This document shows, in pieces, positions 6,499 through 23,314 of a stretch of 44,786 nucleotides of DNA. A program made the position numbers and the translations under genes. The stretch comes from a phage, in assembly GCA_012646845.1 (NCBI GenBank), contig GCA_012646845.1_4707.2; one strand, given 5' to 3'. The notes under the pieces were generated by a model. It ran no database searches, was not told where the DNA came from, and saw only the letters and a program-made list of their open reading frames with translations. The first letter of the stretch is position 1; the number at the start of each line of letters is the position of its first letter.

Positions 6499-6619
6499 CC
6501 GCAATGAGAATCTCTCACGACAAGCTCACGACGATTATCGCATCACCCCGCGAGTGAGGGAGATCAGGATCACCTCCTACGTCGTAACGACAGTAATCCC
6601 GTTAACGTCGCCTTAGGCA

Positions 6620-7258
6620 TTATGCGAAGCGACGCATGTAACCTGCCAGATAGTTACGTGTATCGAAGTAAGCAATTTCAGGAATTGCGATATTAAGGTC
6701 GATAGCACGGATTTCAACTTGGCGACGGCTTTCATCATAGATCGCATCCATCAGACGCAGTACTGTCAGGAAAGCCATGCGGGTATGGTAGTCCAGCGGC
6801 ATGTTATCGATACCACGATACAGATAACGGTTTGCGTTAAACGCCCCTTCGCGGTTATCTTTCCAGATCTTCAGAATATCAGCAAAGGCGGTGCGGAAAA
6901 CCTCAGGATTATCCACATCCAGTAACGCACGGAAAGCAGACATTAAAGACCGCTGATGACGGATCAACGACTGCGGTGTTTGCGGCATGGTCGGACCCAT
7001 TTCTTCCGCATATTTCTGGAACGGAGCAACCAGGGTTGCGGCACGAGAAGCCACGATAGAAACAGCAGGCGATTCTTTCACCGCCGGTTTCGCAGGCTTT
7101 TCTTCAACGGCGGTTTCCTTCTTCTCAACAGCAGCCGTTTCCGGTTGTGCTACAACGTTGTTGATTGGAGCAGCAGCCGCACCATTTTCCACGGTGGTCT
7201 CTACTGCTGTAATCTTTTCTTCCATTTGTGCGGAACGTTGGTCTTTATTCTTGCTCAT
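6620..7258 (-). CDS. hypothetical protein (212 aa), Ala/Glu/Lys-rich N-terminal low-complexity region
   Basis: ORF track. Confidence 0.65.
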   Translation of the reverse strand: MSKNKDQRSAQMEEKITAVETTVENGAAAAPINNVVAQPETAAVEKKETAVEEKPAKPAVKESPAVSIVASRAATLVAPFQKYAEEMGPTMPQTPQSLIRHQRSLMSAFRALLDVDNPEVFRTAFADILKIWKDNREGAFNANRYLYRGIDNMPLDYHTRMAFLTVLRLMDAIYDESRRQVEIRAIDLNIAIPEIAYFDTRNYLAGYMRRFA

Positions 7259-7283
7259 GTCTATTTCCTTTTGTTTAACAAGG

Positions 7284-8585
7284 TTAACTAATATAAAGTT
7301 CAGGATCGTAAGGCGCTAACGATACACTGGCGTTATGCATTGCTTTCATCATAGTGTTCATGAAAACGTTGTTTACACCGGTGATCTCTGCCCCGATCGC
7401 GTCTGGGGTTGGAGCCATCGCGTTACCGCAACAGGTAGCACAGTATTCCAACGGACCCGCTTTACAGCGTTGAGGATCGCGTAACTTGATGGTTTGTCCT
7501 TCCAAGGAAGCGAATAATTCAGCATCAATAAGTTTAAGCGCTGCGCCGTCGATCATGTAACGGCCGACAAGTAGCTTATCTTTGATGTGGTCGCGGTTTA
7601 CCGTGAACAGAATATGTTCTTGGGTGCCGCAGTCGTCCATCGTGATTTTAAGGTTCTGTGTTGCACGTTGCGATTCTTTAGCCGTTTGTCCGGCTAAAGC
7701 GGTCAACGCACCACGTGAGAACGAACCAGCACGTGCACTGTTGTTGTACTCCGCCCAATGGTCGACGCGCATCCCTTCGGCCAGGCTGTGTGTGATAACG
7801 TTACGTTTACCAGGGTCAACGAAGTCGGCTTCAACCCCCATCATGATGTGCGTTTTCTTTCGAGTATTACCGAAACTCTTACCGGGGTTAATATAGAACC
7901 CTTCCGATTCATCGCCCTTAAAGGATTCCTTATCCATTTTGGTTAGCGTGGCTTCGAGTTTGATCAGTTCTTCAGGGGTGAACTTACCTTCCTCTTGTAA
8001 GCGTGCCAACTCTTTATCACGATAGGCAATAATATCATCATCGACCGTTAACGCTTTATCGCTCATTGAAGGCACAATTAAGCGGTTGATAGCGGTTAAT
8101 GCGCTGATATTGTTGGTGAATTTCTTCACTTCGCTTGCGTACAGCGGACCAATCGGACGCTCGTTAGGATCGGGTATTCCCTCTTCGGGATCATCTGCTA
8201 CGCGCGGCGCAATCAGCGATTCTAGTGTGCCGCTGGTTAACCGTCCTGCCTGATATTCAATCTGAATACCGAAAGCGTCATAAAGGACGTACATATTGAA
8301 CAACGCTTCACCGAAGGTTGTGGTGGTTGTGTTCTTAACCGACGGTAGATCGCCAGGCGCAAGCTCCAACGGATCCCAGAAATTCAACAAGGGTTTTGTT
8401 GGTTCTGTTTCCCATTGGTGTTCTTCACCGTCGATGGTAACCGTAACGATGTTACCTTGACGACGTAATTTAGGCTGATACTTCTCAGCGCCCCCTTCCG
8501 TAAAAGCAAATGCGTCGTTAATCCACTCAAGATAACGGTAATGCCCTTCACGCAACGCGTAAAGGAAATAATCACGAGGTGTCAT
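7284..8585 (-). CDS. hypothetical protein (433 aa) with C-terminal Cys cluster (CATCCGNA)
   Basis: ORF track; long uninterrupted frame. Confidence 0.7.
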   Translation of the reverse strand: MTPRDYFLYALREGHYRYLEWINDAFAFTEGGAEKYQPKLRRQGNIVTVTIDGEEHQWETEPTKPLLNFWDPLELAPGDLPSVKNTTTTTFGEALFNMYVLYDAFGIQIEYQAGRLTSGTLESLIAPRVADDPEEGIPDPNERPIGPLYASEVKKFTNNISALTAINRLIVPSMSDKALTVDDDIIAYRDKELARLQEEGKFTPEELIKLEATLTKMDKESFKGDESEGFYINPGKSFGNTRKKTHIMMGVEADFVDPGKRNVITHSLAEGMRVDHWAEYNNSARAGSFSRGALTALAGQTAKESQRATQNLKITMDDCGTQEHILFTVNRDHIKDKLLVGRYMIDGAALKLIDAELFASLEGQTIKLRDPQRCKAGPLEYCATCCGNAMAPTPDAIGAEITGVNNVFMNTMMKAMHNASVSLAPYDPELYIS

Positions 8586-8598
8586 GTAACAACTCCTT

Positions 8599-9477
8599 TT
8601 AAACGTGGGTCAGGTCACCGTGACGTGAAACGAACTCTGATAACGCTCGGGTTGCTTCTTTGGATTCTTCAGCCATCGGGAAGTTTGCGGTAATAAGTTC
8701 TCGTAAGACAGGGACGAGTTCGTTATCTTCGAGATCAGAAGCTAAAGCGAATGCAATCAGTTCTTGGGTGTATGCATACGGTTGCTGACGTAATGCAGCA
8801 AGCTGATCCCGACACTGCGACATGAGCAGGTCCAGTGGAACCGCTATTGTACCCCCTTCATCAATATACTGACCGAATACCGGTGGGAACGCATCGCTGA
8901 TTACACGAATTCGTCGACGGATGCGATCGGGAATCTGGACGTTTTCTTCGTCGGCGATATTTTCGCTGTCTTTCTCCAGCTTCTTGGTCAGCACCTGCTG
9001 AATGCGTGGGAGTAAGCTTGAATGTACGAAACCGATTAGTGATGTTACACCCACAGCATCGACACCGTAAATATAATGCGCGCATTCCGCTAGCGCTTCA
9101 GCTGCGGTGTAGTCTTCATCTTCAACGATAGCGAGTAGAAAAGCGGTATCGTCATGCGTTTCCAGGTCTAATAACGTAGACGCCAGTGCATGAAGATATT
9201 TCAGGCTATCCAGAGATAGTTGCCCTTCGTTAATTCGGATCCCGAAGGCAAGCAATTGTTGTTTATAAAGTTCGATACACCCGTTTGTTAAAATGATATC
9301 GAGTTCGTTTAAATCGTATTGTTCCCCAGCACCTGACAACATCGTACTACAAAACGTTTCCAGTTGCCCGCATTTAAAATCTTGATATAAACGATACATG
9401 CAATGCTGTAACAGCGTACGCCTTGTTTCAGGGATCTTACCTTCTAACAAAGCCAAGACGGAATCAATCATATCCAC
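8599..9477 (-). CDS. hypothetical protein (292 aa)
   Basis: ORF track. Confidence 0.7.
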   Translation of the reverse strand: MDMIDSVLALLEGKIPETRRTLLQHCMYRLYQDFKCGQLETFCSTMLSGAGEQYDLNELDIILTNGCIELYKQQLLAFGIRINEGQLSLDSLKYLHALASTLLDLETHDDTAFLLAIVEDEDYTAAEALAECAHYIYGVDAVGVTSLIGFVHSSLLPRIQQVLTKKLEKDSENIADEENVQIPDRIRRRIRVISDAFPPVFGQYIDEGGTIAVPLDLLMSQCRDQLAALRQQPYAYTQELIAFALASDLEDNELVPVLRELITANFPMAEESKEATRALSEFVSRHGDLTHV

Positions 9478-9567
9478 TCCGATGCGGTAAATGTCTACTA
9501 GCTCTCATAATCTATTGAAGAAACTACCAGCTTACGCCAACTTAGATTAATCAGGAGTAACCATCCC

Positions 9568-10041
9568 ATGCCAGTTTCATCCAAACCAAGAAAGAAATCA
9601 GTAGGAAAACCTAAAGCTCAGGAAACAACAGCGATTCGTTGGGACGAGTTACGTGAACCTATCGAAAACTGCGAATTGTTATTAGGCACCCTGGGTGCGG
9701 CTATTTACCAAGCGACACAACCCTGTCGTTTACGATTAACCCAAAACAAGCGTGATGAGTTCGTTGCGTTATCAACAAGTACGAATAAAGATCTGACCGA
9801 ACTTCAAACCGAGTTGACGACGATCAAGAACTCCATTACGCCGATGTATGGTAAAGAAGTCGATGAACAAAGTATTCTGTTACAGTACAACTACGGGATG
9901 TCGTTAATGAATATCCTGGAACGTGCATCCGATATTCTGCGTCCTGACGTTGCACGCCTGAGCCAACTGCGTGTTGAAGGGATGGAGAACCAGATCCGAT
10001 TCGCTAACAGTGTTAAATCTCAAGGAGCCACCGAAGCATGA
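9568..10041 (+). CDS. hypothetical protein (157 aa)
   Basis: ORF track; AGGAG RBS upstream; stop overlaps next start (ATGA). Confidence 0.65.
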   Translation: MPVSSKPRKKSVGKPKAQETTAIRWDELREPIENCELLLGTLGAAIYQATQPCRLRLTQNKRDEFVALSTSTNKDLTELQTELTTIKNSITPMYGKEVDEQSILLQYNYGMSLMNILERASDILRPDVARLSQLRVEGMENQIRFANSVKSQGATEA

Positions 10042-11696
10042 GCGAACAAGAAAAAGAAGTCGTGACGAATCAGGAAGCCATTGAGCCTTCAGAGTCGTCC
10101 GTTGAAACAATGATTCCAGCAAGTGAGGGTAAAGACGAAGCTGTCACTACCGAAGGAGATGTAGCGGCTCCAGAAGCAACCCGTGAAGAAGAACCATCGC
10201 ATCCACCGCTGGTCGATTTCTCGAAGGCGACGATACGTTTCCAATGCGAAGACATTCGTCCTAAGAGTCCGAAGAAAACAAAACGTCAGCCGTTGGTGTT
10301 ACCGCTGTATTCTCCGCGTGTACAGACAGCGTATTACAAGGAATACATCAACGAAGCAATGGATACCGTGCAAGCCATTGTCGCTCAACGCGGTAAACCT
10401 TCGGACGAGCAATTTGATAAATTCAGTAAAGCGGTAGTGCAATCGGTTGCTGATGGGCAATACCAACCGCGTGGGCCAGCTCATGATCGTGCGTTGGAAC
10501 GTAAGGGTAGTCAGTGGACTAACGTACCCGTAGACTCATCGGGTGTTGGTCGTGTTATTCCTGGCATCCCACAACCGAACCATATTCCTGATGATGTCGA
10601 AGCGCCGTTGACAGGAACCGATGCGATCTATTTTGCTATCCGCAATACGAAATCGGGCGCACCTGCGGTAATGCCGTTATGGCATAGCGGTATTAAGCTG
10701 CAGTTCAATCCACCGTCAAATGAACGTGTTGCGATTATGCATGAACGTATCGCACGTGATAAAATCCTGGGTGGACGTGATAGTACCGGTTTCCTGTTTT
10801 CGGCAACCTCGATTATCACCATGAAGCATGCTATCGAATTAGCGTTAGAATGCTGTTACATGGCCAACGTACCGAACCTGGATATCCAGCGTTTGAAAGA
10901 CATTATTCCGGTTACCGATGTTCCAGCGTTATTGTTGAACGTGCTGGTAACCATGTACCCGTACGGCTATCCTTACGTACAGACCTGCTATCAGAATCCA
11001 GAAACCTGCGACTATCGTGTTGAAGATACCGTAAGCTTTGCGAAGCTCTATCAAGTTGACAACAGCGCAATTACCAAACGTATGCGACAGATCATGACCG
11101 AAGGTCCGGTCATGACAGATGAACTTTTGCGTGAGTATGCAAACGAGCTGGGCGAAACAAACTCCCGTACGCTGGATCTGTCTGACAACGGTTCGGTTAT
11201 CATTGAGCTTGAAGTACCGAAGATTTCACGTCAGATTGCCATGGGTGAACGCTGGTTAAGTGATACCCTGGAAGATCTGCGTGATATTCTATCGCGTCCG
11301 TCAATGACCGAAGAAGAGCGTGATCGTGTTATTCGTGAGCGTCAGTTCTATAGCTGGATGCGTCAATATGATGCGTGGATCAAATCGATGCATGTGTCGG
11401 TAAACGGCACCATGCGTCGTGTAAGCGATGCAGATACGGCAACGGTATTAGCACAGCTGTCTCGTGATAGCGACCTTCGTGAACGCTATATCGATGGGTT
11501 GATGCAGTTCATCGGTGATTCGACGATTGCGCTCGCAGCGATGCCTGCCTGGAAATGTCCGAAATGTAATACCGATATTGCTGACAATCTGCGTGACCAG
11601 AAATACTACGATCTGATTGCTTTGGATGTACCCCAGCTTTTTTTTACCCTAAACTCCGTCCAATCTCTTCAGGAGGGGATGGACGCGGTATTCTAA
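10038..11696 (+). CDS. hypothetical protein (552 aa), acidic low-complexity N-terminus
   Basis: ORF track; translationally coupled to upstream gene; T8 run 17 codons before stop. Confidence 0.75.
   Translation: MSEQEKEVVTNQEAIEPSESSVETMIPASEGKDEAVTTEGDVAAPEATREEEPSHPPLVDFSKATIRFQCEDIRPKSPKKTKRQPLVLPLYSPRVQTAYYKEYINEAMDTVQAIVAQRGKPSDEQFDKFSKAVVQSVADGQYQPRGPAHDRALERKGSQWTNVPVDSSGVGRVIPGIPQPNHIPDDVEAPLTGTDAIYFAIRNTKSGAPAVMPLWHSGIKLQFNPPSNERVAIMHERIARDKILGGRDSTGFLFSATSIITMKHAIELALECCYMANVPNLDIQRLKDIIPVTDVPALLLNVLVTMYPYGYPYVQTCYQNPETCDYRVEDTVSFAKLYQVDNSAITKRMRQIMTEGPVMTDELLREYANELGETNSRTLDLSDNGSVIIELEVPKISRQIAMGERWLSDTLEDLRDILSRPSMTEEERDRVIRERQFYSWMRQYDAWIKSMHVSVNGTMRRVSDADTATVLAQLSRDSDLRERYIDGLMQFIGDSTIALAAMPAWKCPKCNTDIADNLRDQKYYDLIALDVPQLFFTLNSVQSLQEGMDAVF
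11639..11645 (+). other. T TTT TTT slippery heptamer (candidate -1 frameshift site)
   Basis: Heptamer is in X_XXY_YYZ register in the 0 frame of 10038..11696; the -1 frame is open from 11597 through 12118. Confidence 0.3.
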
Positions 11697-11788
11697 TCGA
11701 TCCGCGATACGGGTTACACGACGGACAACTTGTTCGTAATGATGAAAAAATCTGGGAATTGCTGTTAGCGCGTAAAGGCGACGGTGGC

Positions 11789-12118
11789 ATGAAACTGAAC
11801 ATCGAAATGGGTATTGCGTACGATACCATGTTTGGCATGTATGATCGTGTTAACGACTGGACGCCGTTGAAATGGGTTGCTCAGCACCCCGCTGAAGATC
11901 CCTGGGACAGATTAGGGATTAAGCCCTTAATCGAGGATTATGTTCGATTCGGTATTAAAGAGTTCATGACGCTGGATGCGTTTTTACAAGCACCGTATCC
12001 TTACGCGCAAACGGTACTCAAAATCGCACAAGACGAACTGCGGAAACGTAGTGCGGTACTGGACGACGATGAGGACAAGTTACGACGAGAAGAAGAACGT
12101 TTACGAAACGGAAAATAA
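11789..12118 (+). CDS. hypothetical protein or frameshift extension of 10038..11696
   Basis: Track ORF begins with TTG at 11759; first ATG at 11789; frame continuous with -1 frame of upstream gene. Confidence 0.45.
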   Translation: MKLNIEMGIAYDTMFGMYDRVNDWTPLKWVAQHPAEDPWDRLGIKPLIEDYVRFGIKEFMTLDAFLQAPYPYAQTVLKIAQDELRKRSAVLDDDEDKLRREEERLRNGK

Positions 12119-12119
12119 A

Positions 12120-12629
12120 ATGGCGAGATTTACCAGTTTGATTGGGTTGGATATTTGGGAAACACCGGCTGACGTTCGGGTTATTCCTGTCAACACCGTC
12201 GGTGTGATGGGGCGTGGTCTTGCCAAGCAGGCAGCTGATCGTGTACCCGGTCTTCTTGAAGCGTACCGTAAGCAATGTCGAGATGGGTTTAAGGTGGGCG
12301 AAGTCGTATCGTATCAACATGGCGATAACGATCAACTCACCTACGTGTTGTTTCCATCAAAATCGGATTGGCGTGAAAGAACACGGCGCGAGTATATCGT
12401 TAACGGTTTACTGGCGTTAAAAGCGTGGTTATTGGAGCTTCAGTTCGAAAGAGACGGCTTCTCATACCACCGTCCGGCTGAACCACTGATTGTCGCAATT
12501 CCTCCGGTTGGTTCTGGTTGCGGTAATATCGGTTACGGACAATCCGAGACAATCCAGCCTCAATGGGTACGCGCACAAATCAAACAGTATCTTGCCACCG
12601 TGCCAAACGTTCATTTCTACTTGTTCTAA
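12120..12629 (+). CDS. macro-domain protein (putative ADP-ribose binding/hydrolase)
   Basis: ATG at 12120; motifs VIPVNTVGVMGRGLAKQAADRVPG and IAIPPVGSGCGNIGYG resemble macro-domain glycine-rich loops. Confidence 0.7.
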   Translation: MARFTSLIGLDIWETPADVRVIPVNTVGVMGRGLAKQAADRVPGLLEAYRKQCRDGFKVGEVVSYQHGDNDQLTYVLFPSKSDWRERTRREYIVNGLLALKAWLLELQFERDGFSYHRPAEPLIVAIPPVGSGCGNIGYGQSETIQPQWVRAQIKQYLATVPNVHFYLF

Positions 12630-12639
12630 TGCAAAGATA

Positions 12640-12687
12640 GCATAACCCTCCTCCTGGCCTGAACCAGGAGGAAGGGTGTTTTTATGC
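12640..12687. terminator. Bidirectional terminator hairpin between convergent genes
   Basis: GCATAA-CCCTCCTCCTGG-CCTGAA-CCAGGAGGAAGGGTG-TTTTTATGC; perfect extended inverted repeat. Confidence 0.65.
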
Positions 12688-14196
12688 CGCGAAGGTTGGC
12701 TTGTTGCTGGCTTCCCAGGCGGTAGCACCGGTGTCGAAATCGGCATGTTCTGTTACGTTGGAGACGTTCCAACCGGAGATATCCTGGTTGAACGCCTTTG
12801 CGTCCTCAAACATGCTCCGCATCGAAACAATATTAGACATGTTCCAGCTACCGATGTTCTGGTTGAACACAACAGCACTACGGAACATGCGATCGGCATT
12901 CGTTACGTTCGACATATCCCAACCGATGACGTTAGGATCGTTGAACTTCGAACAGCCTAAGAACATCGAGTTGGTGCTGGTGACAGCAGTAGGCAGCTCT
13001 GCCGGGACCGACGTCAGGTTGCTAGCACGTTCGAATGACCAGTTACGGACATCATTCTGTTTCCCGAAGCTCAGAACCGCGAGCAGCGCGTTACCGCCGA
13101 GGTTGATTTTCAGGGATTTAAGTCCGCTCTCTTTCCAACCAATCTCGATGCGACCGGCTTGCGTAACGTCGATGCCCGTATTCGCACCTTCGACAACGTC
13201 TACCTTCACATTGTCGTACGAGAGACGATACCAGAGTTCTGGGTCGACGCCGCCGGTAAGAGGAATATCACCATCGCCCAATGGCACGTCAAACGTGTCG
13301 GAGATAACAGAAAGATCCAGCGCACCCGGCTGCACGGTAGCGGTGAAGTAGGTGAAGTCCTCTGGCTCGGTCACGACCTCATGGTAGCGAAGATACACAT
13401 CGCCAGCCCAAGATTCCGTTTCGGCGTAATCCGTGCTAAGATGCACTGCCTTGTATCCGTCATCAAGGTCGTGCACGGCGATTACATACGCATATTCGAG
13501 CAACGTCGCGAACTCAGTGCGGGTGGTTTCATCGTACCCACCCGCTGAGACCAGACGGTCGATAATGTCGTTACGTAACGCATCATCGATAGCGGCACCG
13601 ATTTCCATCGTCGCCACGTTGTGCTTCGCGACGATCTCATCCCAATCTAACGACAGCGACAGCAGACTCAATGAGGCAAGAGAGTCGCTGTTGTGTAAAT
13701 AGTTGAGTGTATAAAGGTCGGTTTTAGCGATGATGGTCACCAGGTCCAACGTATCGTTGGCGACGGTGAACTTGAGTTTACCTGCCCATACGTAGGAGGC
13801 ATCCGCTGCGTTAAGTTCGAGTTCCTTAACGCCGCTGTCTTCAAAGGTCACTGCGGTTTGCAGATCGGCTTCCAAGAAGTCAACGGTTTTGTCTAACGAC
13901 ACCCCATACCGTGCAGCTAACTGATCGACCACAGCGCCGATGGTGGTATCTGCGTTAACGATGAAGCGCAGAGGAAGACCCAGGAAGTTCTTGGTAAGAT
14001 CTCGGCGAACATAGACCAGGGTTTGTTCGTTGAAGTAGGGGCTACCCTCTAACGGTTTGATGCGGACACTCACCGCATCTGTAGCGTCGTCCTTAGCGAC
14101 AAACTCAAACGTCACGTCCTGTTCGGTCAGCGTAAGCTGGTTCTTACTGTTAACCAGTTCCAGCAACTCATCTTTCCAGTGTTGTAATAACTTCAT
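12682..14196 (-). CDS. putative receptor-binding/tail fibre protein with C-terminal DUF285 (BspA-like) repeats
   Basis: C-terminal repeats GWDMSNVTNADRMF / FNQNIGSWNMSNIVSMRSMF / FNQDISGWNVSNVT; N-terminal domain shared with 15364..17976 and 23321..23848. Confidence 0.75.
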   Translation of the reverse strand: MKLLQHWKDELLELVNSKNQLTLTEQDVTFEFVAKDDATDAVSVRIKPLEGSPYFNEQTLVYVRRDLTKNFLGLPLRFIVNADTTIGAVVDQLAARYGVSLDKTVDFLEADLQTAVTFEDSGVKELELNAADASYVWAGKLKFTVANDTLDLVTIIAKTDLYTLNYLHNSDSLASLSLLSLSLDWDEIVAKHNVATMEIGAAIDDALRNDIIDRLVSAGGYDETTRTEFATLLEYAYVIAVHDLDDGYKAVHLSTDYAETESWAGDVYLRYHEVVTEPEDFTYFTATVQPGALDLSVISDTFDVPLGDGDIPLTGGVDPELWYRLSYDNVKVDVVEGANTGIDVTQAGRIEIGWKESGLKSLKINLGGNALLAVLSFGKQNDVRNWSFERASNLTSVPAELPTAVTSTNSMFLGCSKFNDPNVIGWDMSNVTNADRMFRSAVVFNQNIGSWNMSNIVSMRSMFEDAKAFNQDISGWNVSNVTEHADFDTGATAWEASNKPTFAA

Positions 14197-14203
14197 TTTG
14201 GCC

Positions 14204-14380
14204 TCATTCTAAGCGTGGCATTGAGGGAACCTCGTGCCGGTGTTTTCGGAATTGTGTGTCGATAACCTCACGAAGCTTCAGGGCATCGTGAAGAGTCGAC
14301 GAGTTATACAACGTGAGCGTTACCGTCATGCGGGTGCGTTCACGCGTGTATTCTTTCCGACTGATGATGTCCGTATGCTG
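14204..14380 (-). pseudogene. Partial duplicate of the 3' half of gene 14389..14763
   Basis: Frame encodes ...TVTLTLYNSSTLHDALKLREVIDTQFRKHRHEVPSMPRLE*, paralogous to ...TVTLELFNKSTWVDAYRLREVIDGQFRKHRHEVPSMPKK... of the adjacent gene; DNA-level similarity evident. Confidence 0.45.
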
Positions 14381-14388
14381 TTATGCTA

Positions 14389-14763
14389 TTAATGTTCGTT
14401 CCAGATGGCATCTTCCGGTGGAACAATAGGATCTTTCTTCGGCATTGATGGCACTTCATGACGATGTTTACGGAACTGTCCGTCGATAACTTCACGAAGC
14501 CGGTACGCATCAACCCACGTTGATTTATTGAACAGCTCCAACGTCACAGTTAACCGCGTTCTTGACATTGAATAGCTTTTCTTTGCAATCAAATCGGGAT
14601 AATTCAGTTGAGCGAACCATGCCCGTATTTGTGCTTCGGTAAAAGCGATGCTGTAATAACTAAGTTTACCGTCATTAAAATCGTGCGCGTGGGTGTAACG
14701 TCCAGCGTAACGCCAAACAAGATGCACATTCAGATCGATCCATGGTGGGGTGGTATCAGCCAT
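14389..14763 (-). CDS. hypothetical protein (124 aa)
   Basis: ORF track. Confidence 0.65.
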   Translation of the reverse strand: MADTTPPWIDLNVHLVWRYAGRYTHAHDFNDGKLSYYSIAFTEAQIRAWFAQLNYPDLIAKKSYSMSRTRLTVTLELFNKSTWVDAYRLREVIDGQFRKHRHEVPSMPKKDPIVPPEDAIWNEH

Positions 14764-14772
14764 GTGTTACCC

Positions 14773-15342
14773 TCAACGATTCTTCATCACTTTACCCAGG
14801 CTTTCGATATTATCCCAAAAGCGATTTTTACTTGGCGCATCGCCGACGATAACCGACATCAAATCACGACGCTCGCGACTGATGATACCCTGCGATTTCC
14901 AGATCACCATCGTCCAGCAAGCAGCCAGAACGAACAGATGGTTAATACTCGGTTTGGTTTGTGCGATGAACGCAAGCCATGCCCAGATACCGGTATATAC
15001 TACCGTCACTAAAAAGAGAGAGATTGTTGCAACGACAACAACGAAGTTTTGGATGGCTGGCTGATTGGCGTTATCCTGAAAAGCGGTAAGATCAGGAAGA
15101 TTACCTTCAACGGAACTCGTATCATCGATTTCCAATTCTTCGATTTCTTTTCGTATGTCGGGAGCTAATCCGGCATCATCAAGATGCTTTTTTAACCGCT
15201 GTATACTTAATCGTTGACCGACAGGGATATTAATGTTGTCGTAACTATTAAGCACATCAACCAGGGAGCGTCCGTCAACGAGAACCAGGCTCGCGGTACC
15301 CATCGTTTGCGGTTTTATTTTGTAAAGATCTTTTACTTTCAT
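14773..15342 (-). CDS. hypothetical membrane protein (189 aa)
   Basis: Hydrophobic segments VVVATISLFLVTVVYTGIWAWLAFIA and LFVLAACWTMVIW. Confidence 0.65.
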   Translation of the reverse strand: MKVKDLYKIKPQTMGTASLVLVDGRSLVDVLNSYDNINIPVGQRLSIQRLKKHLDDAGLAPDIRKEIEELEIDDTSSVEGNLPDLTAFQDNANQPAIQNFVVVVATISLFLVTVVYTGIWAWLAFIAQTKPSINHLFVLAACWTMVIWKSQGIISRERRDLMSVIVGDAPSKNRFWDNIESLGKVMKNR

Positions 15343-15363
15343 GTAGACACCACCTCCAACGTG

Positions 15364-17976
15364 TTAAGCGTCTGGTGTAAAATCAAAAGGAACGTCCGTA
15401 CGAATGATATCATAACGTTTTCCTAGGAAATAGAACTCTTCGGGAACCTGACCGGGAATGATGCTATCGCCGATGAACTGTGGGTATGCCCAGATGTACT
15501 GAGTGAGTCCTTCGAACATATCCAGGTTATTTGCGTGGTTACCCATGATACGTTTCCAGAGTTCGCGTTTATACGGTGTTTTGACATCGAACCCATAAAG
15601 CGGTGCGAGGTCTTCGCCTGGAACAAACCCCAGGTAATAGTGGATCTGACTAACCGGGAACCCAAGCGTGTCTCGCGGAATGGTGATCGCTCGCTCAGCC
15701 TTGGTGACATGCGTCTCAATAATCCAGTCGTAGCACTCCGAATAGAACCGATCGAATTTCTCTGGATTGTACCACGCTTTGGGAAGATTCAGTTTCTCTG
15801 TGAACGCGTTCGACATGATCGTCGGCAAGAACGGAAGAACGCCGGTTTTGATCTGCGTGTATTTCGATTTTACCCGATTGACCAGATTCCAGCAAGCAGA
15901 GCCGAGCTGATCGTTGCAGAACTCAACGTACAGATCGTAATCCCCACCCGATAATGGATTATTAATGTCGCCGATATCGGCGGCGTATTTGTTGGGGTAT
16001 CGGTTATTGAAAGCCAGTTTGGTTTGGTAATCGTAGATACACGGTTTGTTGTTCGCCGTGTTGATCCACCACCAGGGTTCACCTACTTGTACACAAATGT
16101 CTTGGACATGCGGGTAGATGATATCAGCAAACGCGGTTAACACATCCCCTAACCACGTCATCGCATGTTGGTTGCATGGCGACAACAACCAAGACGGCGG
16201 CGTATATCCGGTTGCTGCGATGTTTCCTTCCCAATCCTGCTGCGCCCATTCGAACGGGCATGCGGTACTCATCAATTCGTAACTTAAACTGATGGTGATA
16301 GAGAAATGATGTTTTGCAGCATATGCGGCGAACGCTTCATGCCACGCGATACAGGGTGGATTTAATACATCCGTGGTGTTCACCAGTAACTTACCCGCAC
16401 TTGGCGTCCAGACAGTATCGTAGAAATGCGACATGCCAACATAATGCACTAATTCATCCTGATACCCTGCATAAACCAGGTTTTCAAATACGCGCTCCGG
16501 CGTGATGTTGTAATGGTCATCGTAAGCGGTTATCGCACGAAGTTCGTGTGGTGTACAGTGGTGGCGACTAACCGTCATTTCCTGATACACCCCATCGATA
16601 GGAAGAATCTCGAGGGTTAAACCGAGGTCGATTGGCGTTTCCAGGTAGGTCGTTTCAGTCGCATCTTCCTTATAATGTCGAGAACTCATACTGAACATCA
16701 GCGACGTGACCGATTCGAGTTCGATAGGTTCGTCAGCATAGAACCCCGCCATCGCGTCGTTGAAATCGATCGTTACGATTGCGCTTGTACCGTCTTCAGA
16801 GACGTCGGTCGCATATCGGGTTAATGAGATATACTGACGGCTATCGTCTTTGTGTACGATGGTTAGAACCGGCGGGTGTTCGGTATCTGCAAAGTTACGC
16901 TGATCGCCAGTAAATGTGATCTTCGCTTTAAAGATCAAACCGAGCAACGACGTCATTGGATCATACGCAACACAACCGTGATCCAGCGTATCCGTTGTCC
17001 GCCATTCTATCCCGACCAACCCGTTAGCGGTATGGCATCGCATATACGCATTAAGTACCATGTCTTCACTGACAACCGCGAAGTTCTCTGTTGACTGACC
17101 GTTGATAATCCAATACATCGGTTGCCAGAGGTTACGCGTACCTTTTGCGTAGCGGTAGGTTGGTGCGCCTTTAGGGTTGCCGTTATTGAGATGGAATACG
17201 GCAGTACCTTGGTAATGATCGTTCGTGTTAATCGGAACAGTGTACGCGTCGCCGAGGTCCGTACGTTCGACCTTCGTGACAGTTGCGTTTTCAAACAGCC
17301 TGCGTAGTGTAGGAAGACCAATATCATCAGGCGCGTTTTCTCGACGAATTGCGTCCGCGATGCGATGGGCTAGGGCGGGGTAAATGGTCTCACCCTGCTG
17401 TAAGTTTGCAAGACCTACAAAGCGATCGGGGTTGATACCGGCAATCAATAACTCAACATCGCCCCTCGTTCTATCATCATGGAGGTATTTCAGTCCAGTA
17501 AGATCGAGGTGTCGAATTAACGACAACAGATTGTACTTACGGTTTTCAACAGTCAGTACAAGATCACCTGCCCAAACCAAACTTCCCTCATCCACCATTA
17601 CTCTAACGGATTGGCGGCCTGTGGTAGACGTTGTTGTCGTTTTATTTAATTGTCCTTGTAGGAAGTCGGTTGCGAGGTCAAAGGCAACGCCGTAACGGTC
17701 AGCGACCGCCTGCATGATTTCACGTAACTGGGTATCTTCTTCAATGATGATCTTGACAGGTATTCCCAAGAACGCTTTGGCGAGGTCTCGCTTAACCATC
17801 GAGACGAATACGGATTTGTAATATCGGCCTCCATCTTTCCCTTTAAAAAGAATGGAGGTTGTTTCGGGCGACGATAGAACACGTGCAAATTCAACATCGT
17901 CGGAAGTAAGAGAAAGTCCGTTTTTCTCGTTGACCAATCTTAGTATTTCATTTTGCGCGGTTTCATGCAACTTCAT
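15364..17976 (-). CDS. large putative receptor-binding protein/tailspike (870 aa)
   Basis: N-terminal domain (VKRDLAKAFLGIPVKII) shared with 12682..14196 and 23321..23848; long Trp/Tyr-rich C-terminal domain. Confidence 0.75.
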   Translation of the reverse strand: MKLHETAQNEILRLVNEKNGLSLTSDDVEFARVLSSPETTSILFKGKDGGRYYKSVFVSMVKRDLAKAFLGIPVKIIIEEDTQLREIMQAVADRYGVAFDLATDFLQGQLNKTTTTSTTGRQSVRVMVDEGSLVWAGDLVLTVENRKYNLLSLIRHLDLTGLKYLHDDRTRGDVELLIAGINPDRFVGLANLQQGETIYPALAHRIADAIRRENAPDDIGLPTLRRLFENATVTKVERTDLGDAYTVPINTNDHYQGTAVFHLNNGNPKGAPTYRYAKGTRNLWQPMYWIINGQSTENFAVVSEDMVLNAYMRCHTANGLVGIEWRTTDTLDHGCVAYDPMTSLLGLIFKAKITFTGDQRNFADTEHPPVLTIVHKDDSRQYISLTRYATDVSEDGTSAIVTIDFNDAMAGFYADEPIELESVTSLMFSMSSRHYKEDATETTYLETPIDLGLTLEILPIDGVYQEMTVSRHHCTPHELRAITAYDDHYNITPERVFENLVYAGYQDELVHYVGMSHFYDTVWTPSAGKLLVNTTDVLNPPCIAWHEAFAAYAAKHHFSITISLSYELMSTACPFEWAQQDWEGNIAATGYTPPSWLLSPCNQHAMTWLGDVLTAFADIIYPHVQDICVQVGEPWWWINTANNKPCIYDYQTKLAFNNRYPNKYAADIGDINNPLSGGDYDLYVEFCNDQLGSACWNLVNRVKSKYTQIKTGVLPFLPTIMSNAFTEKLNLPKAWYNPEKFDRFYSECYDWIIETHVTKAERAITIPRDTLGFPVSQIHYYLGFVPGEDLAPLYGFDVKTPYKRELWKRIMGNHANNLDMFEGLTQYIWAYPQFIGDSIIPGQVPEEFYFLGKRYDIIRTDVPFDFTPDA

Positions 17977-17998
17977 TGAAAACCTCAGCCCTTTAGAA

Positions 17999-18640
17999 TT
18001 AGATGTACTGCTTACCGCCCACGAAGGAAGTTAGCCAGTTCCCACTGACAAGCTGTGATACCCAGCCAGGCACTGCCCTGCCATTCTGACTCATCACATT
18101 ACCACACCAACCAGGGAATCCGGGACGGATATAATAGAAAGTTAAATTGTAGAGATGGCAATTCCATACTGCAACGTTATGTTTACGAGCAACCGCTTTA
18201 AAGACAAACGCAACGGGTAAAGGCGACGATAGCAATTCGGTCACGGGGACGGCCGACCAGTTCGCATTTGCGTTCCACGGTTGCCAGGTATGGCTACGCG
18301 AGTCGCAATATACGTTACCGTTGTTACCTCGCCCACCCGCATTCCACCATAGCGACGGACTCATGTTCTTAAGTGAGGTAAATTGCTGTGGTGGAATATT
18401 CGGAATAATAACAGGGTTGACGCCTTGCCCATTTTTCTTTTCTTTTGCGTTCACATACCCGCTTATCGATTCGAGGTATTTGACACCAGGATAATTGTTC
18501 TGGACTCGTGTCGCAATATCACGGACATCAAACGTCCAGCAGATCATGGTGTTGTAGTAAGCATCGGTGTTGTCGTACCATGCGTTACCATCTTGTAAAC
18601 GTGCGCCACTATTCGGTGTTTTATCTGTGCTTATAGCCAT
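17999..18640 (-). CDS. hypothetical tail-associated protein, paralog 1 (213 aa)
   Basis: C-terminal 40 aa (RPGFPGW.GNVMSQNGRAVPGWVSQLVSGNWLTSFVGGKQY) identical to neighbour apart from one residue. Confidence 0.7.
   Translation of the reverse strand: MAISTDKTPNSGARLQDGNAWYDNTDAYYNTMICWTFDVRDIATRVQNNYPGVKYLESISGYVNAKEKKNGQGVNPVIIPNIPPQQFTSLKNMSPSLWWNAGGRGNNGNVYCDSRSHTWQPWNANANWSAVPVTELLSSPLPVAFVFKAVARKHNVAVWNCHLYNLTFYYIRPGFPGWCGNVMSQNGRAVPGWVSQLVSGNWLTSFVGGKQYI
18035..18103. repeat. 69-nt near-identical direct repeat, copy 1
   Basis: Matches 18792-18860 with a single mismatch. Confidence 0.85.
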
Positions 18641-18746
18641 GGTATTGTCCTATACTACGATGATTGAGGTATCGAATGTCGGACGCCTGGTGTCGTCTGG
18701 TAGTACATACAGAAACACCCGCAGATAAAACAATAACTCCCATCAA

Positions 18747-19412
18747 TTAAATTGATGTTAGATACTGCTTACCTCCGACAAACGATGTCAACCAGTTCCC
18801 ACTGACAAGCTGTGATACCCAGCCAGGCACTGCCCTGCCATTCTGGCTCATCACATTACCAGCCCATCCCGGAAAACCAGGTCGGAAAATATATACTTGA
18901 ATATGTGTTAAAGCGTTATCATTACCTCCACCAACAGCAACATTACGACGTCCGGATGATGGGAAATATTCTTTTAAGAACAGGGGATCGTTTGCCAATA
19001 AAGAAGCAGGCCAAGGATTAGCGGATGCGTCAACATCGAATTCGGTCCATCGCCATTTGCGTCCGGTATCGAACCAGGTTGACGTACCGCCACCACGCAC
19101 CGCAAGATTGCGTGCATCACGGGCACTGTATATTGATTCGATGTTTCGCCACCCACCTTTTGCGGCGTTTGCCGCATAGCAAACCGCATTACCACCATTC
19201 TTCTTTTCGTAAACGGTTCGTTTGATATGAACACGGTCGATAAACGCTTCACCGTATTTGTTGACAAGTGTTTGCGCAATATCACGAAGATCGTGCATAT
19301 GAAAGGCGATGTCTTCGTTGTGGAACCACGTTGTCGGGTTCCAAACGGTGCCGTTTGGTTCGGCACACATCGATCTGATATTGTTGCGCTGATTAATCGC
19401 GATAAAGCCCAT
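18747..19412 (-). CDS. hypothetical tail-associated protein, paralog 2
   Basis: Start moved to ATG at 19412 (GAGGTG RBS; track start at 19475 lies inside an upstream hairpin); N-terminal DLRDIAQTLVNKY aligns with DVRDIATRVQNNY of paralog 1. Confidence 0.7.
   Translation of the reverse strand: MGFIAINQRNNIRSMCAEPNGTVWNPTTWFHNEDIAFHMHDLRDIAQTLVNKYGEAFIDRVHIKRTVYEKKNGGNAVCYAANAAKGGWRNIESIYSARDARNLAVRGGGTSTWFDTGRKWRWTEFDVDASANPWPASLLANDPLFLKEYFPSSGRRNVAVGGGNDNALTHIQVYIFRPGFPGWAGNVMSQNGRAVPGWVSQLVSGNWLTSFVGGKQYLTSI
18792..18860. repeat. 69-nt near-identical direct repeat, copy 2
   Basis: Matches 18035-18103 with a single mismatch. Confidence 0.85.
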
Positions 19413-19527
19413 GGCCCACCTCGTTTCTATTCTCGAAGGAAATTTCATACGATGACGCCATAACAGCTCCCCCATCCCCCCAACCCGTAAGGGAAGGGAG
19501 GATGTAAGGGAAGGAGGAGCTATTTAA

Positions 19528-20075: not shown

Positions 20076-20660
20076 TTACACAGCTGTAGGAAGTTCAGGC
20101 CAATCGATATTTGGTGCTGTTGATGTGTCAACGCGGTGCAGAGCCACCCGATACTTTTTCCATGCTGTCAGCATCGACACCTCTTCTTCCGTTGCGATCT
20201 CCAGATCCACAGCATCCTGAAGTGGCGCAATACGATCATTCGCTGCCTGCATCAGACTGTTTTTTGTTTCTTCCGCCTCCCGGACATGGGATTGTTTTTC
20301 CGCATCTGTATCTTTCACCCAGGTTGTTCCGTCCCACTTCTGAAACTCTCCTTCCGGGGATAACCAAGTAGTATTTTCTGGTAACGGACCGAGTTCAGAA
20401 ATAAATAACGCGTCGCCGGAAGCCACATCATAGACGGTTTTACCCCGATGGTCTTCAACAATATACCACGATTCATTTTCACTGTTAAAAACTGCCACAA
20501 AGTCAGCAGGAATTTCCGGTGGGGCGATATCTGTAGAATTAGCTGGTAGTCCCGTATGCGGTGGAATATATGCGTCGCCTTCACCAATAAACTCATTGGT
20601 TCCGGCCAGCAGATTATAAATTTTTATGGTTTGTGGTTCATCACTCATTCTGAATGCCAT
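20076..20660 (-). CDS. tail fibre assembly protein (chaperone)
   Basis: Start overlaps fibre stop (TAATG); sequence resembles Tfa/gpG-type chaperones; position immediately downstream of fibre gene. Confidence 0.8.
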
Positions 20661-23314
20661 TATGCAAGCCTCACGATGTAGTTAAATGCGATGTTTTTGA
20701 CGGTGTTTTCCGCGTTACCCGCGGCGTTAACGGTGATGGTGTGTCCATGCGATCCAATCGCAACCGAGTGCGTATGCGCACCAATACCTACAGTATGTGC
20801 ATGTGCACCGGCACTCGCGGCTGTACCGGACAATGAGTGACTATGAGCGCCAGCAGAAGAAGTGTTGACATCGTATTTAGCATAATCAGGCGACCCACTT
20901 CCCGGAGTACCACTGGTGCCACCTGCGACAAATCTCATCGAGTGGGTGTGTGCTCCAGCCGTGTTTGTGGAACCACTCAGACTGTGCGTATGCGCCCCGG
21001 TGTTATTCGTGGTTTTAGTGCCGTAATCAAACGACGATGTGGTTTTCGTCCCCAAATCCGTACCGGATGCGCTGGCGCTATGGTTGTGCGATTTAATGCC
21101 GTCCTGTTCCTGAGACAATACAGCACGACCACTGGCAGGTTTGCCCTTAATCGTCCAGCCACGCATATCAGGAATAACGCCTGACGGATAAGCCACTGCA
21201 AGTTTCGGGTATACAGATTTGTCAAAAGTCTGCCCTTGCATCAGAGCATAACCAGACGGAACGGTATCTGAAGGCCATGGAATAGGCGTACCAACAGGCA
21301 ACGCTGAACCGCCATCCGAACCCGCATCTTTGGTTGGTATAACGATGTTCGCCGAGCCGTCGAACTCAATACCGTTGATTGTGACAGCCGTTTGCAATTT
21401 CGTGGCTGTCGCAGCGTTACCCGTCGTATTCTGATTACCAACCGCATTGACGCCCGGTAATGCAATATCCGCTGTTCCGTCAAAGGCAACACCACCGATT
21501 TTACGTGCGGTTTGTAGCTTGGTTGCACTAGCGGCGTTACCGCTGGTATTCTGGGTGCCAGCTTTGTTAACACCGGGGAGATCGATGTTAGCAGAACCAT
21601 CGAAGCTGACGCCACCTATCGTTCTTGCGGTAGCGAGTTTAGCTGCTGTGGCTGCATTATTACCCACTTTCAGCCAATCATCCCATGGGCCATCCTGGCC
21701 GTTCCATGCTGCCGTTAAACTACGTACGTAAATATTGCCGGTACGTACAGTGTAACGTTGCGTTCCACCGAATTGTCCGGCAGGGAGCACTTCAAGGTAA
21801 CCTGCGGCATTTGCTTCAGGGAAATTGTGGGCGACGTCCGCGTTCGTTGATACTGGTTTAGACCAAATACCCACGGACGCTTCAACCGGACCGTAAGTAT
21901 TCAGATTTGCGTCGGTGGGGAGCTGTCCTCGAAAACGCTGGAATTGTGTTGCCGATAACCCCAACGTTGTTTGCATGCTTTCAATGCTGGATTGCTGCAG
22001 TAACGTCCGTGCTGTCGACGTAATCACGGTAAGCGCAACTTTATTAACACCGGTGAAATACGGGAGTTTGTCTGCTGATGTCACTAAACCTGAAAAGGCG
22101 GTCAGTAATTCGTTAAGGGGTTGCTTCCCAGCTAACGCATTTGTTACCGTCGTTGCGAAATTAGGATCGCTTCCTATAGCTCGAGCCAGCTTATTAAGCG
22201 TATTTAGCGTCGCTGGTGACGAGTCGATCAGTGCCGTGATCGCACGCATCACAAATTCCGTGTTGGCTATCTGTCGACTGCTATCGTTAACTGCTGCGGT
22301 GGGCGCTGCTGGCGTACCAGTGAATACAGGGCTATTAAGATCCGCCTTGAGGGCGATGAGGCGTTTAAGCGCTTCAACATCAACTTTCAGGTTTTCCCAT
22401 CCGATGAGAGAACCATCACCGTTGGCATGATAACGGTTGTACCAGAAGTCACCGTTAACGCCAAAAAAGAATATACATTTCTCTTCGTTTTGTGGACCGG
22501 AACTATTTCGTGATGAGTCGATATATTTGATTTCAATAAGACCGCTAAACACCACCCCTGGGATTATATTGTTGTCTCCAGCTGACTGTGATACCTGGTA
22601 CATCCCCGGGGTTGCGGCTTTAACCCATGTTAAGAATTCTGTTACTCCAGCGGTACCGCTAAAATTCTTAACGTCGGTAAGTATCGCCCCATAACCGAAC
22701 ATACCGGGTAGAGCCACTCGTCCGCTGGTACGATCACGAATATCTGTCGCAACAACAGGCAATTGTTTACGAACGGCATTAACCGCTTTAGGCGTGGCCG
22801 ATTTTGTCTCGTCGTCGCTATCGGTTTCATTACTTAGAATAGTTAAACCGCGTGTAGCAGTAGTTGCATCAGGAAGAAATGCGTTATCCAACACCTTAAG
22901 CTGTATTGCACTCGTATTACTAACAACGACATGCACCTGACAGTTAAGAACGCTGGTTGCGCCTTCGGCAGGCGTAGGCTTATATCTTTCTGGCGCACTG
23001 CAGACGGCAATCAGAACACCTTGGTCGTCATACAGACCGATCTCACGTACCCAGAACCCACCTTGACTAGCAGGAATAATACCCTCAACGATAATCCTGG
23101 TTGTACTATCGCCATCCGTATGGACATTGGAAACTTCCCCACGATAAACTTCATGGACAAGCGCTGTTTGACTGGTGGTTGGGGTTGGGATCGAACCACT
23201 ACCATCGCCAACGGCAAAGTGTGTGATTTTTAGTTTCTTACCGTCAGGAAGTAACGCTGCAGCGATACGTTCTGCGCCTTTATCGGTAACGACCGTTTTA
23301 TATGCTGTACTCAT
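20660..23314 (-). CDS. tail fibre protein, P2 gpH-like N-terminus, internal repeats, His-rich C-terminus
   Basis: N-terminus [21 protein letters not shown]...[20 protein letters not shown] resembles gpH-type collar domain; ~39-aa tandem repeats ([28 protein letters not shown]); C-terminal GAHTHS repeats. Confidence 0.9.

Follow-up and report, generated by a model that had tools for sequence, protein, structure and literature searches.

A gp084-like gene fragment in a Goslar-like jumbo phage is probably the remnant of a diverged homologue that arrived with an accessory fibre-type gene

Two neighbouring minus-strand genes of a phage genome, encoding proteins of 124 aa (14389..14763) and 504 aa (12682..14196), are separated by a gap of 192 nt (14197-14388) that contains what looks like a second, diverged half of the smaller gene. 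This raises the question of whether the fragment arose in place, by duplication of its neighbour, or was brought in from another genome, and whether it still serves a function. All positions given here refer to the window, the whole stretch of 44,786 nt that was analysed. At the nucleotide level the region is 93-95% identical to Escherichia phage vB_EcoM_Goslar (Goslarvirus), a jumbo phage that forms a nucleus, and the source of the window is a Goslar-like (Chimalliviridae) jumbo phage of E. coli. The minus-strand order in Goslar is gp086 - gp085 - gp084, followed by an annotated terminator and the convergent macro-domain gene gp083; gp086 (minus strand) has 870 aa with DUF7941, NCTSP_N and TIM barrel domains according to Pfam, and gp085 (minus strand) has 189 aa. 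The resident genes and the fragment are arranged in the window as follows.

14773-15342, minus strand: orthologue of gp085, 189 aa, with a hydrophobic central segment and without family assignment
14389..14763, minus strand: orthologue of gp084, the intact resident small gene, 124 aa, last in the gp086-gp085-gp084 operon
14374..14388, minus strand: native 3' sequence of gp084 on the recipient side, 15 nt, TAGCATAACAGCATA
14204..14373, minus strand: 5'-truncated remnant of a diverged gp084-family gene, with codons corresponding to residues ~56-109, its own short tail and TGA
14204..14329, minus strand: largest ATG-initiated open reading frame in the remnant, 41 aa, probably not expressed

The resident 124-aa protein shares 97.6% amino acid identity with Goslar HOV27_gp084, and the whole of gp084 is conserved at 96.8-100% amino acid identity among 14 Goslar-like genomes. 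Searches of gp084 against Pfam and PHROG gave no match. An AlphaFold2 model of moderate quality (built from a four-sequence alignment, pLDDT 69) predicts a fold consisting of two beta-beta-alpha units, and the best match of this model in the PDB (Foldseek) had an E value of only 0.37. Mass spectrometry of the Goslar virion detected gp085 at ~3-7 copies per virion, comparable to gp086, and a single peptide of gp084 at trace level (bioRxiv 10.64898/2026.04.21.720040); these copy numbers suggest a role for gp085 as partner of gp086 in the virion and for gp084 as a non-structural helper.

Translation of the gap in one minus-strand frame gives QHTDIISRKEYTRERTRMTVTLTLYNSSTLHDALKLREVIDTQFRKHRHEVPSMPRLE, in which 58 codons are open from a TAA at 14383-14381 to a TGA at 14206-14204; the other two minus-strand frames contain 4-5 stops. 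The TAA closing this frame at its 5' end, as the original prediction had it, is contributed by the native 15 nt downstream of gp084. The remnant protein (TDIISRKEYTRERTRMTVTLTLYNSSTLHDALKLREVIDTQFRKHRHEVPSMPRLE) aligns without gaps to residues 54-109 of gp084, with 36 of 55 amino acids identical (65%) and a BLOSUM62 score of 192, compared with a mean of 24.4 (sd 4.4, maximum 44) in 2000 shuffles. The nucleotide local alignment scores 65, against a mean of 17.2 (sd 2.4, maximum 33) in 500 shuffles, its best stretch being 60 nt at ~80% identity, and tblastn likewise finds significant similarity to the gp084 family (E 1e-20). The claim that the gap holds a diverged copy of the 3' half of its neighbour is therefore borne out at both the protein and the nucleotide level. 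As to its extent, the homologous stretch is real but had been drawn too short at the 5' side: homology continues to ~14371 (DIISRKEY ~ DLIAKKSY) and so reaches the insertion junction at 14373/14374 described below.

What is left of the gene starts at residue ~56, and the N-terminal half that is conserved in the gp084 family (PPWIDLNV, RYTHAHDF) is missing. The first start codon in the frame corresponds to residue 71 and has no Shine-Dalgarno motif; it opens the only ATG/GTG/TTG reading frame present, so the predicted ceiling of 41 aa for an ATG-initiated product (14204..14329) holds. Given this late onset of the homology, the TAA upstream and the absence of a ribosome-binding site at the first available start, the sequence is a remnant and not a functional member of the gp084 family.

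Comparison with Goslar by blastn shows collinearity with the window at 6606-12650 and 14374-18692, and between these blocks 1,723 nt of the window stand in place of 29 nt within the Goslar terminator. The same empty site is found in 11 Goslar-like genomes, namely Goslar (L005) and ten from IMG/VR and public metagenomes (L003, L004, L011-L018); in each of them the homology ends precisely at 14374 and is picked up again at 12650-12661. The inserted segment and its further parts are listed here.

~12651..14373, minus strand: whole insert relative to Goslar-type genomes, ~1.72 kb (1,723 nt), from blastn against the 11 empty-site genomes
14197..14205, minus strand: ribosome-binding region of the acquired gene, GAGG (14205-14202), 5 nt before the ATG at 14196
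12682..14196, minus strand: acquired accessory fibre-type gene, 504 aa, DUF7941 at aa 3-272 and DUF285/BspA-like leucine-rich repeats at aa 404-493
12796..13727, minus strand: variable central part of the acquired gene, unalignable between the window allele and the allele of L019-L022 (P0004)
12640..12681, no strand assigned: insert-borne terminator hairpin, CCCTTCCTCCTGG-TTCAGG-CCAGGAGGAGGG, with flanks GCATAA/TTATGC

The insert thus comprises the 5'-truncated gp084-like remnant, which forms its left end, a complete DUF7941+DUF285 fibre-type gene (12682..14196) and a terminator of its own. It takes the place of ~25-29 nt of the native terminator hairpin, namely its 5' arm and its loop. The empty site reads ...TAATAGCATAACAGCATA-(CCCTCCTCC loop GGAGGAGGG)-TTATGCTATC..., and the junctions in the window read ...TAATAGCATAACAGCATA|CGGACATCATC... 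on the left and ...GGCATAAAAACACCCTTCCTCCTGGTTCAGGCCAGGAGGAGGG|TTATGCTATC... on the right. At the left joint, recipient sequence 15 nt past the gp084 stop runs directly into a foreign gp084 homologue at approximately its codon 55, within a few nucleotides of where the protein homology (DIISRKEY ~ DLIAKKSY) sets in. The right crossover falls in or beyond the 3' arm GGAGGAGGG, which the insert and native hairpins have in common. The hairpin carried by the insert was recovered by a terminator scan (12649-12672), folds at -31.2 kcal/mol (z -4.2) and is identical in all eight insert-bearing copies that we found. Its flanks GCATAA...TTATGC also occur downstream of P0122, a 104-aa gp084-like protein of a more distant relative (L024), which indicates that the donor terminator was homologous to that of the recipient.

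The amount of divergence between the remnant and gp084 bears directly on its origin. Over 165 aligned nucleotides the identity is 57%, with 21, 14 and 36 differences at codon positions 1, 2 and 3, respectively. By the Nei-Gojobori method synonymous sites are saturated (pS 0.885) and pN is 0.29; the source gene of the remnant thus evolved under purifying selection, and the two copies must have parted long ago and both been functional genes for most of that time. The half of gp084 that matches the remnant is 94.5-100% identical at the amino acid level in 14/14 sampled Goslar-like genomes, which differ from each other by up to 14% in the flanking nucleotides (range 2-14%). P0122 (loci L024/L025), on the other hand, is 47% identical to the remnant and to gp084 alike. 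With 65% identity to the resident protein, the remnant is therefore placed by sequence comparison in a lineage outside all sampled Goslar-like diversity, although nearer to it than the L024/L025 phage.

A tandem duplication of the 3' half of gp084 in situ, with subsequent divergence of the downstream copy, might be suggested by the adjacency of the two homologous segments, which lie ~224 nt apart in the same orientation. We consider this origin highly improbable: the divergence expressed in 57% nucleotide identity and saturated synonymous sites far exceeds the 2-14% that separates the surrounding genome from its relatives, a second copy has left no trace in 11/11 empty-site relatives, and an untranslated copy could have maintained neither a pN of 0.29 under saturated pS nor an open frame. 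Furthermore, the remnant never occurs apart from the foreign DUF285 gene, and the boundary of the insert coincides exactly with the end of the homology. The original prediction had called the fragment a footprint of segmental duplication or recombination in the receptor-binding locus; recombination is the part that stands, with the remnant as the left end of an insert, and duplication is not supported by the saturation and the absence from 11 relatives. Saturated sites, the contrast of 65% with 94.5-100% identity and the occurrence only within the insert instead point to a diverged homologue from elsewhere that came together with the DUF285 gene. In summary of these data, our preferred reading, to which we give a probability of roughly 80%, is that a diverged gp084 homologue was transferred together with an accessory DUF7941-DUF285 fibre gene and survives as a non-coding remnant.

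The polarity of the change, from empty to filled, is supported by the native hairpins. The hairpin of the empty sites differs from that of the insert in its 5' arm and loop, and its arms show compensatory changes among the relatives, so that the empty state appears to be old and not a deletion product of the filled site. The reverse, a filled ancestor from which the cassette was deleted, could in principle be mediated by short GCATA repeats present at both ends (..CAGCATA|CGG.. and ..GCGGCATAA..), but such a loss would leave the insert hairpin (CCCTTCCTCCTGG...) behind, whereas the empty sites carry a different, co-varying 5' arm and loop. In addition, the most divergent Goslar-like genomes, L013 and L017, are empty, and the filled copies are nearly identical across backgrounds, making a deletion origin very unlikely. 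It should be noted that even with a filled ancestor the remnant would still derive from a foreign homologue. Regarding the native hairpins themselves, the compensatory pairs of arms observed in L003-L005 and L011-L018 are CCCTCCTCC/GGAGGAGGG and CCCTCTCCC/GGGAGAGGG. The hairpin of L016 has the inner TTCCCTGCTGGGTT swapped for its reverse complement AACCCAGCAGGGAA, a flipped hairpin centre.

Site occupancy is thus polymorphic, with 11 empty genomes and 8 filled copies whose junctions are identical. The filled copies are the window and seven independent metagenome contigs from different samples (L006, L007, L019-L023). The short contigs L006 (ENA) and L007 (Logan) encode the exact 504-aa protein and have an identical remnant and junction; L023 carries an allele of the fibre gene that is 94% identical and 529 aa long; and L019-L022 share an allele (P0004) of 467 aa with 46% amino acid identity overall to that of the window, in the same locus order of gp086-gp085-gp084-[192-nt gap]-DUF7941/DUF285-macro. 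All three alleles are accompanied by the remnant, the same left joint and the same terminator. Since the window is apparently metagenome-derived or similar and the locus is polymorphic in nature, a chimeric contig built from reads of two co-occurring phages has to be considered, but the same left and right junctions recur in seven contigs from different runs and pipelines (ENA and Logan), which leaves an assembly artefact next to no probability and argues for a single origin of the insertion.

The presence of the insert does not track the relatedness of the flanks. The left flank of the window differs by 1.9% from the empty L011 and by 2.3% from the empty L003, compared with 3.5-5.1% from the filled L019-L021, and the flank of L020 is closest to Goslar; the filled genomes are thus not each other's closest relatives. 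Among L019, L020 and L021 the inserts show only 0-1 differences in 661 nt, whereas their flanks differ by 4-25 nt in gp085 and 9-14 nt in gp084. Such near-identical inserts in differing backgrounds, together with the incongruent distribution, indicate a cassette that is younger than the backgrounds it occurs in and that, as judged from these comparisons, has been spreading between them by homologous recombination, with the remnant always travelling along.

The more distant relative L024/L025 encodes a module of a DUF7941/DUF285 protein, a 188-aa protein and the 104-aa P0122. In these loci (8316-10614, Logan), a different DUF7941 gene, 733-748 aa long and convergent in orientation, occupies the site between P0122 and the macro gene. 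The position of gp086 is occupied by a DUF7941-DUF285 protein of 775-790 aa, so that the module of fibre gene, gp085-like and gp084-like gene is conserved while the type of fibre varies. The occurrence of this module in L024/L025 as well indicates that genes of the gp085/gp084 type accompany DUF7941 fibre genes. With a different DUF7941 gene found at the same place, the intergenic site before the macro gene is a hot spot with at least three states.

The fibre-type gene of the cassette encodes an N-terminal DUF7941 (PF25613, E 1.1e-27) and a C-terminal DUF285 (PF03382, E 1e-24), the latter in agreement with the earlier assignment of this neighbour. Its architecture (DUF7941 with DUF285/BspA-like LRR) is that of Goslar gp161, and it has the N-terminal DUF7941 module in common with Goslar gp86; identity is only 34-36%, being 35.7% to gp161 and 34% to the DUF7941 part of the resident gp086, and its locus is not that of gp161. 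By these sequence criteria the 504-aa gene is an additional, optional member of the DUF7941 family that is absent from Goslar. Ten DUF7941 proteins have been identified in the Goslar virion, gp22 was shown to form filaments and a baseplate-anchored 'fibre cloud' was proposed, in a model where gp86, gp92 and gp161 with their carbohydrate-binding, hydrolase or LRR domains serve host recognition (bioRxiv 10.64898/2026.04.21.720040). Virion association and filament formation of DUF7941 proteins are known only for these Goslar paralogues, from mass spectrometry and electron microscopy (bioRxiv 10.64898/2026.04.21.720040).

The alleles differ by ~1-5% in the remnant and, over its first ~166 nt, in the fibre gene; divergence then rises to ~22% from ~14030; the alignment is lost at 13727-12796 and regained for the last ~113 nt. 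Hence the alleles agree at the two ends of the protein, with ~160 conserved N-terminal aa (DUF7941) and ~37 conserved C-terminal aa, and the centre is replaced. In L023, positions 1702-1733 (window ~12748-12792) add ~25 aa near the C-terminal DUF285 repeats, which looks like the expansion of a repeat unit.

Several collections were searched for the gene from which the remnant derives. A tblastn search of gp084 against 50,697 phage records returned Goslar only, and a word index of 5.8 billion proteins yielded only the Goslar-type cluster P0001 for gp084; for the remnant the same index gave no candidates, a weak negative given that the known homologue P0001 was missed too. Scans with degenerate patterns derived from the gp084/remnant alignment (IMG/VR, JGI metagenomes, GTDB genomes) gave only 63-64% matches, or none. 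An exhaustive HMMER search of 1.84 billion representatives retrieved P0122 only, besides a spurious repeat protein (P0123), and the 50%-identity clustering behind these representatives could hide a donor-type sequence. Similarly, the 504-aa protein had no match in a scan of IMG/VR, and its DUF7941-DUF285 homologues P0006 and P0031 sit at the equivalents of gp161 and gp91-93 with no gp084-like neighbour. No intact second copy or donor gene was found in related genomes either, the check that had been named for the original prediction. An intact donor-type gene being absent from the collections searched, the donor arrangement described below is our reconstruction and not an observed locus.

Typical members of the group have a late operon of gp086 - gp085 - gp084 ending at a hairpin terminator that it has in common with the convergent macro-domain gene. 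The donor, presumably a more distant and unsampled relative, would have had a gp084 homologue separated by 7 nt from a downstream DUF7941-DUF285 fibre-type gene, with a homologous terminator after the latter. The 1.72-kb cassette from this genome would have taken over the site of the native hairpin at the expense of its 5' arm and loop. The right-hand crossover seems to be homologous, as it lies in the conserved 3' arm of the hairpin or past it, and the left-hand joint is likely illegitimate, linking recipient sequence past the gp084 stop to ~codon 55 of the donor gp084 homologue. The outcome would be an intact resident gp084 followed by a beheaded C-terminal half of the donor copy, without promoter or start, that persists through its youth and its physical linkage to the acquired gene. 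Homologous recombination in the flanks would then have carried the cassette into further Goslar-like backgrounds, and the middle of the fibre gene would have been exchanged for other alleles. We infer the direction of transfer; the sequence would fit the entry of the cassette into a Goslar-type genome as well as the joining of a donor-type genome to a left arm of Goslar type.

The remnant would now form a 192-nt leader with a native ribosome-binding site for the acquired gene. Its one clear present role is structural, in that its last codons and stop overlap the GAGG of the acquired gene; this GAGG, which overlaps the TGA, is invariant in 8/8 copies. Because the 5' arm of the native terminator is removed, transcription of the gp086 operon should run through the remnant and reach the new fibre gene via this leader. 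A sigma-70-like promoter scan of 14197-14388 detected none, phage-polymerase promoters being outside the coverage of the scan. Late genes of chimalliviruses are transcribed by their own RNA polymerases.

The remnant might alternatively be a functional element under selection, either a 41-aa micro-protein (MTVTLTLYNSSTLHDALKLREVIDTQFRKHRHEVPSMPRLE) containing the last strand and helix of the gp084 fold or a cis-acting leader or phage-RNA-polymerase promoter. In keeping with this, its frame of 58 codons is open where the other frames have 4-5 stops, the full 170 nt are kept in 8/8 copies with five variable sites, a divergence below that of the coding genes on either side, folding of the leader is somewhat more stable than expected (z -2.4, 4/200 shuffles as good), and the ribosome-binding site of the downstream gene overlaps the stop codon of the remnant. 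However, four of the five variable sites are nonsynonymous, including 2/2 within the 41-aa frame (in the adjoining DUF285 gene, 50/76 differences are at third codon positions). These few sites give no sign of coding constraint, and stops and frameshifts have not accumulated yet. The 15 nt upstream of the 41-aa frame contain no Shine-Dalgarno motif, and the ATG was skipped by gene callers, with no gene calls at the remnant in L019-L021. The remnant spans the second predicted beta-beta-alpha unit of gp084, and the 41-aa product would lack beta3, the first strand of that unit (AlphaFold2, pLDDT 69); neither an Rfam match for the leader nor a sigma-70-like promoter was found. As for a fusion with gp084 by read-through or frameshifting, the remnant is out of frame with gp084 and behind TAA TAG, and we rejected this candidate.

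The low divergence of the remnant among filled genomes (1.0-1.6%, vs 2-6% for the neighbouring coding genes gp084 and gp085) is seen to the same degree on both sides of it, in the final ~50 nt of gp084 and the initial 166 nt of the DUF285 gene; we attribute it to the youth of a co-transferred block, and functional constraint would look the same. We thus regard a selected functional element as unlikely, and decidedly unlikely the more specific possibility that the half-gene has been kept as a micro-protein assisting the adjacent fibre protein or as a cis-acting leader or promoter needed by the acquired gene, in which case gp084-type sequences would be a portable 'adaptor' travelling with DUF7941 fibre genes. 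The fragment is most probably a non-coding pseudogene remnant whose present part is that of a leader for the acquired gene.

The cassette invites comparison with the morons, accessory gene cassettes of tailed phages (the Hendrix/Juhala concept). As in morons, extra DNA lies between genes that are adjacent in close relatives, comprises a complete gene with its own terminator (here 12649-12672), is present or absent at one site, and has a patchy distribution with a history differing from that of its flanks. Unlike morons, the insert has no promoter of its own that was detected by the sigma-70-like scan, its expression presumably depending on read-through; it encodes a virion fibre-type protein instead of a lysogenic-conversion function, and it drags along a truncated piece of the upstream gene of the donor. 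Mosaic tail-fibre and receptor-binding genes of phages conserve an N-terminal anchor and swap the distal part. The acquired gene resembles these in its conserved ends (first ~160 aa, last ~37 aa) and replaced centre, and differs from a classical trimeric fibre in its anchor, the chimallivirus-specific DUF7941 that was proposed to polymerise into the 'fibre cloud' (bioRxiv 10.64898/2026.04.21.720040).

In the PeSL-mediated shuffling of T4-type phages, cassette boundaries at conserved intergenic stem-loop or terminator motifs provide short homology (PMC2839356, PMC4122927), and the right boundary in the common 3' arm of the terminator hairpin is similar. In contrast to PeSL cassettes, only one boundary is at a hairpin and the other was joined illegitimately within a coding sequence; the window contains a single copy of the hairpin motif, with no evident promoter part. 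With its motif at one boundary only and unrepeated in the window, the insert was not classified as a PeSL-type cassette. The illegitimate left joint has left its scar in the truncated upstream gene, and the event as such is ordinary phage mosaicism.

The value of the remnant is that of a marker of an optional additional DUF7941 and leucine-rich-repeat fibre gene in Goslar-like jumbo phages, carried between gp084 and the macro-domain gene at a hot spot of recombination. The cassette, which seems to come from an unsampled related lineage and to be spreading between backgrounds with at least three alleles already, is relevant to differences in host range within a group for which the 'DUF7941 fibre cloud' was proposed only recently, and it physically ties the uncharacterised gp085/gp084 pair to DUF7941 fibre genes.

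The window differs from Goslar at further places. A second insertion is located at 18693-19417 and holds an extra 242-aa ORF (18747-19475, minus strand) that is missing in Goslar and in L019. This is a paralogue of the adjacent 213-aa gp087 orthologue (17999..18640), with 36% identity overall, almost identical last ~45 aa and 77% nucleotide identity at 18758-18886, and it may be another addition of the cassette type to the same structural operon. Collinearity with Goslar is lost near 20117, the window being different at ~20118-23314, and the 884-aa ORF at 20660..23314 (minus strand) has patchy nucleotide similarity of 67-74% to the Goslar tail-fibre gene gp090, so that the classical tail fibre of this genome also differs from that of Goslar.
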